Source: an uncultured Clostridium sp. (lineage in GTDB: Bacteria; Bacillota; Clostridia; TANB77; CAG-508). Taken from it: a DNA stretch of 64,000 nt. The notes under the pieces are model-generated. The model was not told where the DNA came from and made no database searches. It saw only the letters and a program-made list of their open reading frames with translations. Shown here piece after piece: positions 1-51,252 of the stretch. Location of the stretch: the NCBI GenBank assembly GCA_948471115.1, contig CAOKRJ010000002.1, forward strand, positions 4,805 through 68,804, read 5' to 3'. Position 1 is the stretch's first letter. Every line of letters begins with the position of its first letter. Both the position numbers and the translations under genes were made by a program.

Positions 1-271
1 AAGTAAGATAATAGAAAGCAGGATTACAGAAAATAGAAATTTTGTAAATAACTATATAAATATATTATGCGGGAAAATATTGCATTTGGACGGAGATAGA
101 CGTTATGCAGAGAAATCTGCTAAATATTATAAAAAAATGGGGCTAAATGCTATTGTAAAAAGTGTCCCAGAAAATAAGCAACCAATTGTAGTAGGTAATT
201 TAATAAGAAGATATAAACCAGATATACTTGTTATTACAGGTCATCATCGGAAAGGTTATACCGAAAAATAA
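1..271 (+). CDS. yabG: YabG sporulation-specific protease, 5' portion (gene split by ICE after pos 244)
   Basis: The frame is open from the window edge. GKILHLDGD...YKPDILVITGH matches B. subtilis YabG (PGKVLHLDGDE, YRPDILVITGHDAY). Homology ends at 244 and an unrelated 8-codon tail runs to TAA 269-271. The gene resumes at 50893. Confidence 0.85.
   Translation, partial: SKIIESRITENRNFVNNYINILCGKILHLDGDRRYAEKSAKYYKKMGLNAIVKSVPENKQPIVVGNLIRRYKPDILVITGHHRKGYTEK
257..269. repeat. Left subterminal inverted repeat TATACCGAAAAAT of the ICE
   Basis: Its reverse complement (TTTTTCGGTATA) occurs at 50865-50876. The repeats lie 12 and 16 nt inside the two crossover points. Confidence 0.55.
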
Positions 272-312
272 AAAAATGGTTGAATGCTTTGAAATACCAA
301 TAATTTAATAGA

Positions 313-346
313 AAAAACAAGCTAATTTGTAGATAGCTTGTTTTTT
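313..346 (+). terminator. Rho-independent terminator just inside the ICE left end
   Basis: The stem AAAAAACAAGCT / AGCTTGTTTTTT has a 10-nt loop and a T-run. Confidence 0.5.
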
Positions 347-455
347 AGGCTTGAAAATAATTATTATATGGATTTTAAAATGTAAGATAATAACATATAA
401 AAGCGAGTTAATGATATAAATTAATTCGTTTTTTCATTTTTAATGAAAGGATACA

Positions 456-488
456 TAGCTTTTAAATAAAAACTATGTTTAAAAGCTA
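456..488. promoter_or_regulatory. 11-bp inverted repeat upstream of parA (possible operator)
   Basis: TAGCTTTTAAA-N11-TTTAAAAGCTA lies immediately before the parA ribosome-binding site. Confidence 0.3.
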
Positions 489-515
489 AATTTAAAAGAA
501 AGGAGGGCAAAAAAT

Positions 516-1344
516 ATGGCAAAATGCAAAGTGATAGCAATAGCAAATCAAAAAGGTGGAGTACGGTAAAACAACAACGACTTTTAGTCTAGGGGTAGCA
601 CTAGCGAATAACAATAAGAAGGTATTAGTAGTCGATGCAGATCCTCAAGCAAATTTGACAACGTGTATGGGTATTGAAGAAAACGAAAGGGAAGTAACTC
701 TCTCTACTTTAATCGAACGATACATTGATGATGAAGAAATAAGACCAGAGCAGGCAATTATAAAAAACATAGAGGGGATTGATTTAATACCAACTAGCTT
801 AAATTTATCAATGACAGAAGTTAATTTATTAAATACAATGAGTAGAGAATATGCAATGAAAAGTAGCTTAGAAGAACTAAAAAGTATATATGATTATATT
901 ATAATTGATTGTATGCCATCTTTAAGTATGGTAACAACGAATGCACTAGCAACAGCAGATGAAGTTATAATACCAGTTCAATCACAATACCTGTCAGCAA
1001 GAGGAATGGGCAACTTGATAAATATAGTAGGAAAAGTAAAAAAACAACTTAACCCCAATTTGAAAGTTGGAGGAATACTTTTAACATTAGTTGATAACAG
1101 GACAAAACTACCAAACATTGTAAGACAAGAAATAAAAGAACAATATGGAGATGCAGTAAGGTTATATGAAACACAAATTCCTTGTGCAATAAAAACGGCA
1201 GAGTCCACCTCACACGGAAAAAGCATATTTGCGTATGACAAAAATAGTAAAGTAGCTCAAGCCTATAAGGAGTTTGCAAAGGAGGTGCTAGTAGATGAAC
1301 AAAGACGAAAGAATGAAACTACCAAAGCTTACATCACTAGATGA
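516..1344 (+). CDS. parA: ParA/Soj-family partition ATPase (needs +1 at CGG 564-566)
   Basis: RBS AGGAGGG precedes ATG 516. MAKCKVIAIANQKGGV then CGG TAA. Skipping C564 gives the deviant Walker A KGGVGKTTT and joins ORF 556-1344. Confidence 0.85.
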
Positions 1345-48615: not shown

Positions 48616-48881
48616 ACAATAGATGAATAATATAAAAAAGTGAGAATATGATTTTGTTAAGGAGGAATGCTTATGAAATGTAAATATGAAATAAATTATA
48701 CTTTTCCAAAATCATTATCATTTGAAGAAATAAAGGAAATTGTGTGCGAGAAAATTGCAAAGTTAATGATTTTAGATGAAAAATAAAAATCACACATTTT
48801 TATTTTTGATAAATAAAAAATATAATAATGGAGGTATTAAAATAGGCATTTAGCCGAATCAATAGGAAAGGAAAGTTGATT

Positions 48882-50861
48882 ATGGTAATAAATGTATTTA
48901 AAGAAGGAAATGATGAAAATGATGCATTAGATAAGAATAATTATAGTATAAAAGAGGGAGATGATGATAGTGAGGTACAAAAAATAAAATCACATTTAGA
49001 TATAACATATTTAAAATATGTTTCTGATAACATTAAATATTTATTAAAACTTAATATTACAAATGATAATGAGTGCTTTGAAAAAAGTAATAAATATACT
49101 AAAGATAAAGAAACAGGAGATAAATATAGAGTAATTTTATATATAAGACTTTCTGTTGAGGATGGAGATGTAATTGATGGAGATGTTAGCAAGAGTATAA
49201 GAAATCAATTGTTAATTTTATTAGATGAATGTGAAAAGAGAGGTTGGGTTGTTGTTGCAATATTTTGTGAAGAAGGAATTTCTGGTGCAGATGATAATAG
49301 ACCAGAATGGAATAAGTCTTTAAAGTTTTGTGAATATGGAAATACAGAAATTGTATTGTGCAAAAGCCAATCTAGATTTTCAAGAAGTATGGAAATGATA
49401 GAAAAATATTTACATAACGAATTTATTACATGGAATATAAGATTTGTAGGGTTAGTAGATAGTACAGACACATCTGTTATAGGAAACAAAAAAACTAGAC
49501 AGATAAATGGATTAGTAAATGAGTGGCAAGTAGAGGATCAATCAATAAACATAAGAGCAGTATTAAAAAATAAACAATCTAATGGTTTATTTACTGGTGC
49601 ATTTGCTCCATACGGTTATCTAAAAGACCCAAAAGATAAATATCATTTTATAATAGATGAAGATGCAGCAAGAGTTGTTAGAAAAATTTTCGAAATGTAT
49701 GCAAGTGGAAACGGAGCAACTAAGATATGTTTATATTTGAATGAGAATAAAATACCAATTCCTAGTATATATAAACATCAAAAAGGTTTAAAATTCAATT
49801 GTCCAACTGTTAAATATGATCAAAGAATAACATACCAAGTTGAAAAAGGAGATAGCTTAGTTGCAATAGCAGATAAATATCAATCAACAGTAAAAGAAAT
49901 AATACAATATAATTCAATGGAAAGTGAAGAAATTACTGAAGGTCAGATAATAATAATACCAGTTGTTCATGTATGGAGAACAAATACAATATATAATCTG
50001 TTAAAAAATGAGGTATATATTGGAACATTAATACAACATAAAAATGAAATTATAAGTTATAAAAATAAAAAAGAAAGGAGTATTCCAAAAGAGCAAAGGA
50101 TAGTAGTTCCACATTGTCATGAAGCTATAATAGATAAAGAAACATGGAATATAGTAAGTGCAAGATTTGAAAGATATAGAAAAGTAAAATCAAATAAAAA
50201 AGGAGAAATATCATTGTTTTCTGGAAAATTGAAATGTGGATGTTGTGGACACGCATTATATAGAGATTATCATGAGAGGGGAAATAAAACATATTCTTAT
50301 TGGTTATGTGGAAATAGATATGGAACTGCTAAATTTTTATGTAACAATAAAAAACTTGTTAATGAACAGGAGATAGAGAGAATATTACTAGATGAAATTA
50401 ATAAACAATTGGATATATATTATGATAAATCATTAGTAGAAGAAAAGTATTATGAACAGAAAGTAGTTAATTCTTTAGAAGATGAAATAAAATTATTACA
50501 AAAAGAAAAGAAGGAATTAGAAAATAATATAAGTAAAAAGCAAAACACAATATCATTACTATATGAAGATAGAGCGAATGGAATTATTGATTTAACAGAA
50601 TTTACAATGATAAAAAATAAAAATAGTATAGATATTGGACATTTTCAAGAAAGACTAAGAAATATAGAAAGTGAATTATTAGACTTAAATAAGAAAAAAC
50701 TAGAAAAGTATGATACAGAAAAAATATTAAAAAAATATAAAAAAATTGAAAGTCTAACTAGAAGTATATTGGATGAATTTATATCAAAAATTCACATAGG
50801 CTATTATAATCCAGAAACAAAAACAAGAAAGATTGAAATAGAGTGGAATATAAGTACCTAA
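48882..50861 (+). CDS. Large serine recombinase with N-terminal acidic extension and embedded LysM-like segment
   Basis: YRVILYIRLSVEDGD catalytic region, recombinase domain, a zinc-ribbon-like CGCCGH...C and a coiled coil. LysM-like YQVEKGDSLVAIADKYQSTVKEIIQYN...GQIIIIP lies at 49827-49964. It is the last gene before attR. Confidence 0.85.
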   Translation: MVINVFKEGNDENDALDKNNYSIKEGDDDSEVQKIKSHLDITYLKYVSDNIKYLLKLNITNDNECFEKSNKYTKDKETGDKYRVILYIRLSVEDGDVIDGDVSKSIRNQLLILLDECEKRGWVVVAIFCEEGISGADDNRPEWNKSLKFCEYGNTEIVLCKSQSRFSRSMEMIEKYLHNEFITWNIRFVGLVDSTDTSVIGNKKTRQINGLVNEWQVEDQSINIRAVLKNKQSNGLFTGAFAPYGYLKDPKDKYHFIIDEDAARVVRKIFEMYASGNGATKICLYLNENKIPIPSIYKHQKGLKFNCPTVKYDQRITYQVEKGDSLVAIADKYQSTVKEIIQYNSMESEEITEGQIIIIPVVHVWRTNTIYNLLKNEVYIGTLIQHKNEIISYKNKKERSIPKEQRIVVPHCHEAIIDKETWNIVSARFERYRKVKSNKKGEISLFSGKLKCGCCGHALYRDYHERGNKTYSYWLCGNRYGTAKFLCNNKKLVNEQEIERILLDEINKQLDIYYDKSLVEEKYYEQKVVNSLEDEIKLLQKEKKELENNISKKQNTISLLYEDRANGIIDLTEFTMIKNKNSIDIGHFQERLRNIESELLDLNKKKLEKYDTEKILKKYKKIESLTRSILDEFISKIHIGYYNPETKTRKIEIEWNIST

Positions 50862-50864
50862 TAT

Positions 50865-50876
50865 TTTTTCGGTATA
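50865..50876. repeat. Right subterminal inverted repeat of the ICE
   Basis: TTTTTCGGTATA is the reverse complement of TATACCGAAAAA at 257-268. Confidence 0.55.
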
Positions 50877-50892
50877 TTAAAAACTAGCACAT

Positions 50893-51252
50893 GATGGAAT
50901 GATAAAGAATGGAACAGGTTTTACAGATATATATAATTATAGAAATTCTAGATATTTTATAAACACAGTAAAAGAGGCAAGAAAAGCTTCTGTGGATAGG
51001 GAGCTAGTTATATTTGCAGGTGCATGCCAAAGCTTTTTTGAAGCAATTATGGAATCAGGAGCAAACTTTGCCTCATCTCCAGCAAGAGTATTAATAGATT
51101 TTATGGATCCATTAACAATTGCAGAAAAAGTTGCAATAACCTCAGAAGAAAAAAATATTACTATGAAAGAAATATCATATTTACTAAAAGACGATAATAA
51201 AAGAGTAGGAGGAATAACCTCAAGGGGAAGAAAGAAAAAATATACAATATAA
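50893..51252 (+). CDS. yabG: YabG sporulation-specific protease, 3' portion
   Basis: DGMIKNG...YNYRNSRYFINTVKEARK...LVIFAGACQSFFEAIMESGANFASSPARV matches B. subtilis YabG (AYRHSKHFVETVQTARK, LVIFAGACQSHFESLIRAGANFASSPSRV). Confidence 0.85.
   Translation, partial: DGMIKNGTGFTDIYNYRNSRYFINTVKEARKASVDRELVIFAGACQSFFEAIMESGANFASSPARVLIDFMDPLTIAEKVAITSEEKNITMKEISYLLKDDNKRVGGITSRGRKKKYTI

Follow-up and report, generated by a model that had tools for sequence, protein, structure and literature searches.

A degenerate conjugative element splits the sporulation protease gene yabG of an uncultured Clostridium and may be excised in the mother cell

The sporulation protease gene yabG of an uncultured Clostridium sp. 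is split by an intervening element of 50,648 bp, and exact deletion of this element puts the gene back in frame. The locus lies on contig CAOKRJ010000002.1 of GenBank assembly GCA_948471115.1, from which a stretch of 64,000 nucleotides (positions 4,805 to 68,804, forward strand), in the following called the window, was analyzed (Table 1). The element combines the degenerate backbone of an integrative and conjugative element (ICE) with a nested mobilizable element, regulatory cargo, and a recombination unit. As the most likely mechanism, to which we assign a probability of about 0.5, we propose that the large serine recombinase (LSR) of the element excises it in the mother cell and that this is triggered by a 37-amino-acid factor, the product of orf37, which would be expressed under the control of sigma-E. 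Since the genes veg, sipL, yunB, and lonC lie downstream of the yabG 3' part, the host belongs to the spore-forming Clostridia, and its closest relatives are uncultured mouse-gut genomes. Loci from other genomes that were compared with the window are designated by L numbers.

Joining the window across the break points 244|245 and 50892|50893 gives the translation ..ILVITGH|DGMIKNG.., and the joined product of 200 residues matches profile positions 100-276 of 280 of Pfam Peptidase_U57 (YabG) with an E value of 3e-67 and NCBIfam TIGR02855 (spore_yabG) with an E value of 3.5e-60. CAT is present at both junctions (attL ..ACAGGTCAT|CATCGG.., attR ..CTAGCACAT|GATGGAATG). In the reconstructed attP, ..TTTTTCGGTATATTAAAAACTAGCA-CAT-CATCGGAAAGGTTATACCGAAAAA.. 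(junction letters ..CTAGCACATCATCGGAAAGG..), 12-bp inverted arms are arranged symmetrically about the C|A of CAT, and the window retains the two arms, TTTTTCGGTATA and TATACCGAAAAA. Integration by the recombinase took place at the yabG codons for the conserved catalytic-His motif T-G-H|D-G, with the crossover within CAT. In carriers in which the 5' fragment is complete (L097, L098, L102), it encodes 157 amino acids (aa) and continues beyond the junction as ..ITGH-HRKGYTEK*. The two halves are also contiguous in nature: a search of related genomes for an uninterrupted yabG with the predicted attB, ATTACAGGTCATGATGGAATG, yielded an intact gene of 268 aa with the exact TTATTACAGGTCAT|GATGGAATGAT in the close relatives L081-L083, and the same attB in L105-L111, whose chromosomes are 99.56-99.76% identical to the right flank of the window over 6,363 bp. 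Between the joined window product and the intact allele P0261, only one residue is different. Because the predicted attB occurs in uninterrupted natural genes, the split is not a chance resemblance.

The first-pass annotation of the window had described the split by an element of about 50.6 kb, the in-frame restoration, the shared CAT, and the serine recombinase gene as the last gene reading towards attR, and these features are confirmed by the translations, the domain matches, the junction letters, and the intact natural alleles. Its comparison with the skin layout (split gene, in-frame restoration, terminal serine recombinase) holds as well. The element thus lies within the coding sequence of a sporulation gene that is expressed in the mother cell, carries its own site-specific recombinase, and restores the open reading frame (ORF) upon joining of attL and attR in silico, as is expected from an intervening element. 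That yabG is a late mother-cell gene, as had also been stated, agrees with the sigma-K control of the yabG-like gene CD3569 in C. difficile (PMC3789822) and of yabG in B. subtilis (as cited in PMC10747680).

Table 1. Features of the yabG locus and the intervening element (positions in the window).
Feature	Position	Strand	Remarks
yabG 5' part	2..244	+	frame 2; window opens inside the gene; ends at His codon of ITGH|DG motif; translation ..RRYKPDILVITGH
attL	215..270	.	shared CAT at 242-244; element-side arm CATCGGAAAGGTTATACCGAAAAA, inverted relative to attR arm
Intervening element	245..50892	+
parA and parB	516..2248	+	parA frameshifted within Walker A at ~566: KGGV|R* / GKTTT
SpaA-domain surface adhesin	3151..7253	+	three overlapping ORFs; same split pattern in L097-L104
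Giant polyvalent methylase/SNF2-helicase gene, left part	7646..12922	+	ORFs of 842, 82, 144, 557, 173 codons; identical pieces in other assemblies
Nested mobilizable element	12923..21914	+	8,992 bp; splits the SNF2-helicase gene of the ICE; junction core GGAACTA
Helicase gene, right part (Helicase_C)	21915..23606	+	beyond nested element
DUF3991/Toprim primase-like gene, NikA-like gene, MobA/VirD2 relaxase, DUF3801	24178..28180	+
Type IV coupling protein pseudogene	29253..31101	+	at least 4 frameshifts, at least 5 pieces; same fragments in L086, L087, L089, L090
Type IV secretion module	31067..38328	+	pilin-like genes, MT-A70, PrgI, VirB4-like ATPase, sortase, CHAP hydrolase
Regulatory cargo	39583..47444	+	PMT_2 membrane protein first; sigma factors, response regulators, Arc-like and helix-turn-helix proteins
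Extracytoplasmic function (ECF) sigma	41268-41741	+	within regulatory cargo
Anti-sigma	41734-42684	+	within regulatory cargo
Spo0A_C response regulator	42705-43421	+	within regulatory cargo
Response regulator with Spo0A-like receiver domain	45795-46475	+	within regulatory cargo
Sigma-like protein	46923-47444	+	within regulatory cargo
MazF/PemK toxin gene	47822..48193	+
Sigma-E-like promoter	48625..48652	+	GAATAAT-N13-AATATGAT; begins 49 nt upstream of orf37 start codon
orf37	48674..48787	+	37 codons, MKCKYEINYTFPKSLSFEEIKEIVCEKIAKLMILDEK; strong ribosome-binding site; candidate recombination directionality factor
Sigma-A-type −10 hexamer	48821..48826	+	TATAAT; TGnTATAAT in most relatives; between orf37 and recombinase gene, followed by conserved leader
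LSR	48882..50861	+	659 aa; Resolvase, Recombinase, Zn_ribbon_recom, DUF4368 domains
attR	50866..50920	.	shared CAT at 50890-50892; element-side arm TTTTTCGGTATATTAAAAACTAGCA
yabG 3' part	50893..51252	+	translation DGMIKNG...KKKYTI*

The recombinase starts with an N-terminal extension of ~85 residues, which is followed by the catalytic domain, the recombinase domain, a four-Cys zinc ribbon, a coiled coil (residues 530-618), and a DUF4368 tail. It possesses the Ser nucleophile, the recombinase domain, and the zinc ribbon with embedded coiled coil that characterize LSRs, and R89, S91, C452, C455, C476, and C487 are invariant across 18 homologues. An AlphaFold model (mean pLDDT 72.5), in which the coiled-coil helices comprise residues 530-565 and 571-618 and the protein ends in beta-hairpins, matched full-length serine integrase structures in Foldseek with an E value of 6e-22. 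Judged from sequence and model, the window recombinase looks functional. Inside the recombinase domain, at residues ~315-360 (window 49824-49961), there is a LysM domain that is kept in most of the family; LysM is normally an extracellular peptidoglycan-binding module.

The recombinase family comprises 3,231 matches, with 573 relatives in genomes that each represent one species. A tblastn search with YabG revealed that a relative of the recombinase abuts yabG in seven other species-level genomes, which makes eight loci together with the window. Both yabG halves flank elements of ~3.2-5.6 kb in L006, L012, L015, L004, and L010, whereas in L016 and L019 the yabG 3' part abuts the recombinase gene. 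All junctions of this clade, both of them visible in six loci, follow GGN-CAT (TGH|DG). The cargo of these small elements, which was labeled by eye from translated ORFs, differs from locus to locus. Besides orf37 and a frameshifted recombinase gene, whose product is 94% identical to that of the window, the 4.3-kb element of L006, the closest species, carries nothing but genes for an AAA ATPase of 425 aa and an RloB-like protein of 207 aa (7819-9710), a pair that by eye appears defense-system-like. Glycosyltransferase-like genes were noted in L004 and pilin-like proteins in L016, and in L012 and L015 an ECF sigma occurs together with an anti-sigma and a Spo0A-C-domain protein, like the trio at 41268-43421 of the window. 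Across the loci, the conserved core consists of attL, orf37, the LysM-containing LSR, and attR, with variable cargo in between.

A sister clade points to a second sporulation gene as target. In L007-L009, L011, L013, L014, and L030 the recombinase gene is directly followed, on its 3' side, by 180 codons of an amidase, which matches TIGR02883 (spore_cwlD) with an E value of 2e-59 and has its junction at GH|GG. The yabG and cwlD targets share GGN-CAT-G(A/G)N-GG, and cwlD is sigma-E-controlled in C. difficile (PMC3789822). A motif search of the sister-clade loci found no cwlD 5' half, so that the 3' junction alone is documented, and no description of a split cwlD was found in the literature. These sequence data make cwlD a likely further target gene. 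In L020 (11962-12010 of a 130-kb contig), an attP-like junction that has the two inverted arms, TTTGGTATAAGCGAGTCTTCCACAT|GACAGATACAGTTATACCAAG, comes after the recombinase gene, which suggests an unintegrated or episomal relative. Other clades land elsewhere, namely in a peroxiredoxin-like ORF in L001 and at poly-G intergenic sites in L023-L034, and the family as a whole is therefore not sporulation-specific. Such landing in non-sporulation DNA would fit an ordinary mobile-element insertion without any developmental role, for which the conserved G-H-D/G-G codons would merely be a dependable landing site; carriers would then be yabG-null until the element leaves, and any excision would serve transfer and not be tied to the mother cell. 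We regard this as the main rival explanation, at well short of even odds. It leaves unexplained why elements of 3-6 kb without transfer genes persist at the yabG site in several species.

The second component of the unit is orf37, which lies directly upstream of the recombinase gene and is conserved at the protein level throughout the family (motif ..EIICKKIAxIII..). It is called as a gene in L084 and L085, and no Pfam or PHROG family was found for it. Known directionality factors are likewise small, GirX having 42 aa (PMC5595907) and SprB 58 aa (PMC4191935), and the 64-aa Skr is encoded directly upstream of spoIVCA in an overlapping arrangement (PMC6957869); the layout of orf37 and the recombinase gene resembles sprA/sprB, girC/girX, and spoIVCA/skr (PMC4191935, PMC5595907, PMC6957869). 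A 138-aa ORF at 48199-48615 was also considered as directionality factor and rejected, as it is not conserved in relatives; the homology to L006 begins at 48609.

Upstream of orf37 there is a sigma-E-like motif, defined here by the pattern [GT][AC]ATA[AT][AT]-N13-15-[AC]ATANNNT. It was present in all seven loci of the yabG clade with the region covered (of eight), at −44 to −50 from the orf37 start, and in all six loci of the cwlD-type clade (L007, L008, L009, L011, L013, L020), at −48 to −50, but in none of 15 loci from clades with other targets. The background rate was 0.9% of 584 ORF-upstream windows, with a match allowed at any position. Binomial P values overstate the independence of these observations, because the loci are related by descent. 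The 15 loci without a match include L014, which also abuts cwlD and in which the −35 element (TCATATT) is perfect but the −10 element falls just short of the pattern. The spacer between the two elements has diverged, whereas the motif has not. The sigma-E consensus of Helmann and Moran, with its spacing, reportedly reads ZHATAXX-14-CATACAHT. In C. difficile an ATA in the −35 element marks sigma-E promoters, together with a −10 element of the CATA type, and an AC marks sigma-K promoters (PMC3789822). Overall, the comparative evidence favors sporulation control of orf37, and an ordinary insertion leaves unexplained why the motif occurs at a fixed distance only where the clade borders on yabG or cwlD, both of them mother-cell genes. 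A sigma-E or sigma-K promoter, or a directionality factor, had been named in advance as something to look for. While the sigma-E-like motif in front of the candidate factor answers to this, strict sigma-K (AC-N16-18-CATANNNTA) and sigma-E patterns had no match in 47400-48900 or upstream of the relatives' yabG genes. In L082 (1400-1443), L006, L097, and L098, at sites outside the window, a sigma-K-like −10 element, CATAAACTA, is located 22 nt before the yabG start codon, with no canonical AC −35 element. The sigma-A-type −10 hexamer in front of the recombinase gene was read by eye and was not listed by a generic promoter scan. In 47400-51400, a generic sigma-70 and terminator scan performed no better than on shuffled sequences, except for the veg promoter and a terminator after 47444; just before veg, at 51367-51395, there is a perfect TTGACA-17-TATAAT promoter with an upstream TG.

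On this basis, the proposed mother-cell excision would proceed as follows. The recombinase would be made constitutively from the sigma-A-type promoter and, alone, would only integrate. The 37-residue orf37 protein would act as its recombination directionality factor and, being transcribed from the sigma-E-type promoter, would appear in the mother cell only, after asymmetric division. Recombination between attL and attR would then remove a 50.6-kb circle and bring back an intact yabG before sigma-K turns the gene on, whereas the forespore chromosome would keep the element.

Pfam annotation revealed a recognizable Firmicutes ICE backbone (ParA, ParB through VirB4, sortase, CHAP hydrolase), and to this extent the first-pass description of the intervening element as an ICE stands. 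The element is decayed, however, and the claim of a full conjugation apparatus has to be withdrawn: parA, the coupling protein gene, and the VirB4 gene are frameshifted, and the helicase gene is frameshifted and split. The coupling-protein pieces are collinear with the T4SS-DNA_transf profile (positions 10-83, 268-350, and 415-452 of 468), and the VirB4-like ATPase is frameshifted inside Walker A at 35507-35517, which leaves pieces of 465 and 320 aa (..FILGVS|RKW.. and ..VGSGKSFTAK..). Thus, of the components that define an ICE, an integrase and a relaxase are present, the latter being an intact MobA/VirD2 protein of 455 aa (25950-27317) with a NikA-like partner, while an intact coupling protein and an intact VirB4-type ATPase are lacking. 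By its gene content, the element is a fossil rather than a working ICE, at best mobilizable via the intact relaxase, and it could have spread by mobilization in trans.

Frameshifts of this kind are typical of error-prone assemblies, and one might therefore take the fragmentation for a sequencing or assembly artefact that hides an intact, self-transmissible ICE. We regard the chance of this as negligible, since identical fragments occur in independent assemblies, by which error as the cause is ruled out. The VirB4, coupling-protein (181 and 98 aa), and helicase fragments are called identically on many independent contigs from ENA, NCBI, and Logan, and the 262-aa ParA fragment is called likewise in other samples. 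In the index of the assembly collection, the 465 + 320 aa VirB4 split is found in 138 blocks and a helicase piece in 50, and L086 is 100% identical to the window at the DNA level over 21.4 kb. In the right flank of the window, the host ORFs gave no sign of broken genes. The combination of decayed transfer genes with an open recombination unit and two open yabG halves suggests selective retention, as with skin. This retention, the clade-specific sigma-E-like motif, and the skin-like logic count for excision in the mother cell, and an ordinary insertion would not explain why both yabG halves are open and nearly identical to intact alleles.

The distribution of the element in related genomes gives a more divided picture. 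In the 90%-identity cluster of YabG, three split C-terminal variants of 117 aa were found on 89, 7, and 4 contigs, and the listed intact alleles (268 and 275 aa) on ~130. Since split and intact alleles coexist at ~99.6% average nucleotide identity, the insertion is polymorphic within a species. The elements of L097 and L102 differ from that of the window at 1-3 positions per 10 kb, while their yabG 5' parts differ at 26 of 207 nt (12%), and L098 shows 11 differing positions in the yabG part and 2 in the element. On the right side of L084, one substitution and one indel in 12 kb of element contrast with 12 substitutions in 3.4 kb of host flank. A near-identical element next to divergent host DNA means that it was recently integrated at the same site in divergent hosts. 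This recent transfer and the polymorphic presence are what an ordinary insertion would predict, as are the defective recombinase and yabG alleles of some carriers.

Several of these observations speak against developmental excision. The persistence of the element may owe more to recent horizontal spread than to domestication. In L084 and L085, which come from other samples, the C>A exchange corresponding to window position 50554 is the sole substitution in the 12 kb of element and converts S558, in the first helix of the coiled coil, into a stop codon. In L006, the recombinase gene is frameshifted and the attL arm is degenerate. In the carriers L099 (3905-4207) and L100 (6503-6805), two samples of one study, the yabG 5' part is frameshifted (..ILHLDRR*), and yabG could therefore not be restored there even after excision. 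These locked carriers (L006, L084, L085, L099, L100) indicate that loss of yabG reconstitution is tolerated, and yabG is not known to be essential for spore formation. The promoter in front of orf37 is predicted from sequence, and its −10 element starts with A in the yabG clade (AATATGAT), where the consensus has C. Furthermore, exact attP searches gave no match in JGI metagenomes or IMG/VR; an attL control, run in JGI only, was also without match, so that the JGI negative is uninformative. It might even be that the element can no longer excise and that yabG is a permanent pseudogene in this lineage, as the locked relatives and the extensive decay of the ICE genes would allow. We consider this quite improbable, because the window shows no damage to the recombinase, to orf37, or to either att arm, the intact 659-aa recombinase allele predominates (exact matches on 59 contigs vs. 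2 with the S558-stop allele), and the element evidently integrated recently into divergent alleles. As an observation apart, L097 contains an additional partial yabG copy (1769-2014; ~residues 33-100, ending ..HLDGD) 4.5 kb upstream of the complete 5' part, with two further sigma/anti-sigma pairs in between.

It had been left open whether yabG is a described target for such elements. It is: Douillard et al. (2023) described yin, a prophage-like, Caudoviricetes-like element in yabG of C. botulinum V73, which leaves the chromosome as a circle, so that yabG is restored, to a growing extent in the course of sporulation, and which alters sporulation timing (PMC10747680). According to these authors, yabG was split by no other element in public data up to November 2023 (PMC10747680), whereas eight species-level genomes with a yabG-splitting recombinase element are reported here. 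Both systems split the same host gene and contain an LSR gene within the element. The yin recombinase gene, however, lies beside the yabG 5' part and that of the window at the 3' side, and yin is flanked by a 14-bp repeat. The att-spanning quantitative PCR primers for yin translate to GACHLA and LDPVFLCE, which places the yin site between the GAC(Q/H) and DP motifs, ~50 codons downstream of TGH|DG. The window element has neither the 5'-side recombinase nor the GAC-DP site, and no phage structural genes were found in it by Pfam annotation. Since site, orientation, and cargo all differ, the element represents a second, separate route into yabG.

For the proposed regulation, the closest parallel is skin(Cd), in which sigma-A directs constitutive expression of the recombinase CD1231, and the factor CD1234 depends on sigma-E and is confined to the mother cell (Serrano et al., 2016, PMC5025042). 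Like skin(Cd), the window element is a decayed mobile element in a mother-cell gene, and it would likewise pair a sigma-A-driven recombinase with a small sigma-E-driven factor. The target of skin(Cd) is sigK, its origin is a prophage, and its system is experimentally proven, whereas that of the window is predicted. Moreover, CD1234 has 72 aa and is not encoded adjacent to the recombinase, as orf37 is (PMC5025042); the size comparison in PMC10747680 is ambiguous as to which protein has 53 and which 72 aa. In the non-phage intervening element gin in gerE of Bacillus cereus (Abe et al., 2017, PMC5595907) and with sprA/sprB of SPbeta in spsM, an integrase and a small directionality factor (GirX, SprB) suffice for excision (PMC5595907, PMC4191935, PMC6957869). 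These systems resemble the present one in having an exchangeable recombination unit with differing cargo, but they involve other recombinase lineages and targets, and their units were swapped artificially between phage and ICEBs1.

Among solved structures, the best sequence match of the recombinase was the TnpX catalytic domain (2mhc; E value 2e-10). With the TnpX/TndX elements of Clostridia (Tn4451, Tn5397) the window element shares the DUF4368 tail, the position of the recombinase gene as terminal gene of a mobilizable or conjugative element, and a TnpV gene, which is part of the nested element. Unlike these, the window recombinase unit has the 85-residue N-terminal extension, the inserted LysM domain, and the conserved partner ORF; TnpX is not known to need a separate directionality factor.

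The nested element contains genes for TnpV, AAA_25, DUF6075, NikA, a relaxase (15557-16951), ParB, and two DUF6664 proteins, and its last gene (19819-21846) encodes a second LSR. Its empty site, an uninterrupted helicase ORF of 718 aa, is found in L089-L091, L093, and L095, and the arrangement is a gene-splitting element within a gene-splitting element. In the left part of the helicase gene, L089, L090, L093, and L095 diverge fully from the window to the left of 8784/8785, all of them starting ~50 nt before that point, which suggests a polymorphic repeat or insertion in these samples. A TnpV-like ORF of 118 aa lies at 8484-8840, in an alternative frame within the 842-codon polyvalent-protein ORF, and by eye is similar to the ORF at 13021-13422, for whose counterpart in L094 Pfam gives a TnpV match; one of the two overlapping readings is probably spurious.

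The several sporulation-type regulators that the first-pass annotation had noted in the element are indeed there, namely the Spo0A_C and Spo0A-like response regulators and the ECF sigma factors. The ECF sigma/anti-sigma pair (window 41201-42658) is 93-95% identical to a chromosomal pair located just upstream of yabG in relatives (L006:5438-6891, L097:1-1323), and L097 has both copies on one contig; this likeness may mean that the element captured host DNA from its flank. Other assemblies have no called ORF for a MazE-like antitoxin upstream of MazF. The ~300 nt in front of the MazF gene (window 47530-47820) contain no ORF of at least 80 codons and fold with −63.3 kcal/mol (z −4.0; 0 of 200 shuffles as good), and may constitute a structured RNA, for which Rfam gave no match; the sole match of the Rfam search was a tRNA-Leu.

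To our knowledge, the well-studied intervening elements of sporulation genes are all prophage-derived or small non-phage elements, and we found no description in the literature of a natural ICE-derived intervening element in a sporulation gene. The element represents a second class of yabG-intervening element, ICE-derived and nested, and its recombination unit belongs to a widespread, undescribed family that apparently also targets cwlD. A wider reading, which we regard as unlikely but put forward for discussion, is that a mobile unit of LysM-recombinase and sigma-E-driven 37-residue factor has spread through uncultured gut Firmicutes and radiated onto at least two mother-cell sporulation genes, yabG and cwlD, via their common GGN-CAT-GRN-GG, which codes for G-H-D/G-G. 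With interchangeable cargo (ICE fossils, defense-like genes, and the recurrent ECF sigma/anti-sigma/Spo0A-C regulator), it would time its excision by the host sporulation program and at the same time tune that program. A fully conjugative relative could, if this were true, use the doomed mother cell as a cost-free donor. If the candidate role of orf37 holds, the gene stands for an unannotated family of directionality factors, and compact recombinase-factor pairs with defined 50-bp sites would be of interest as genome-engineering tools. For the gut Clostridia themselves, the Spo0A-like and ECF-sigma cargo may shift the timing of sporulation, as yin does in C. botulinum.

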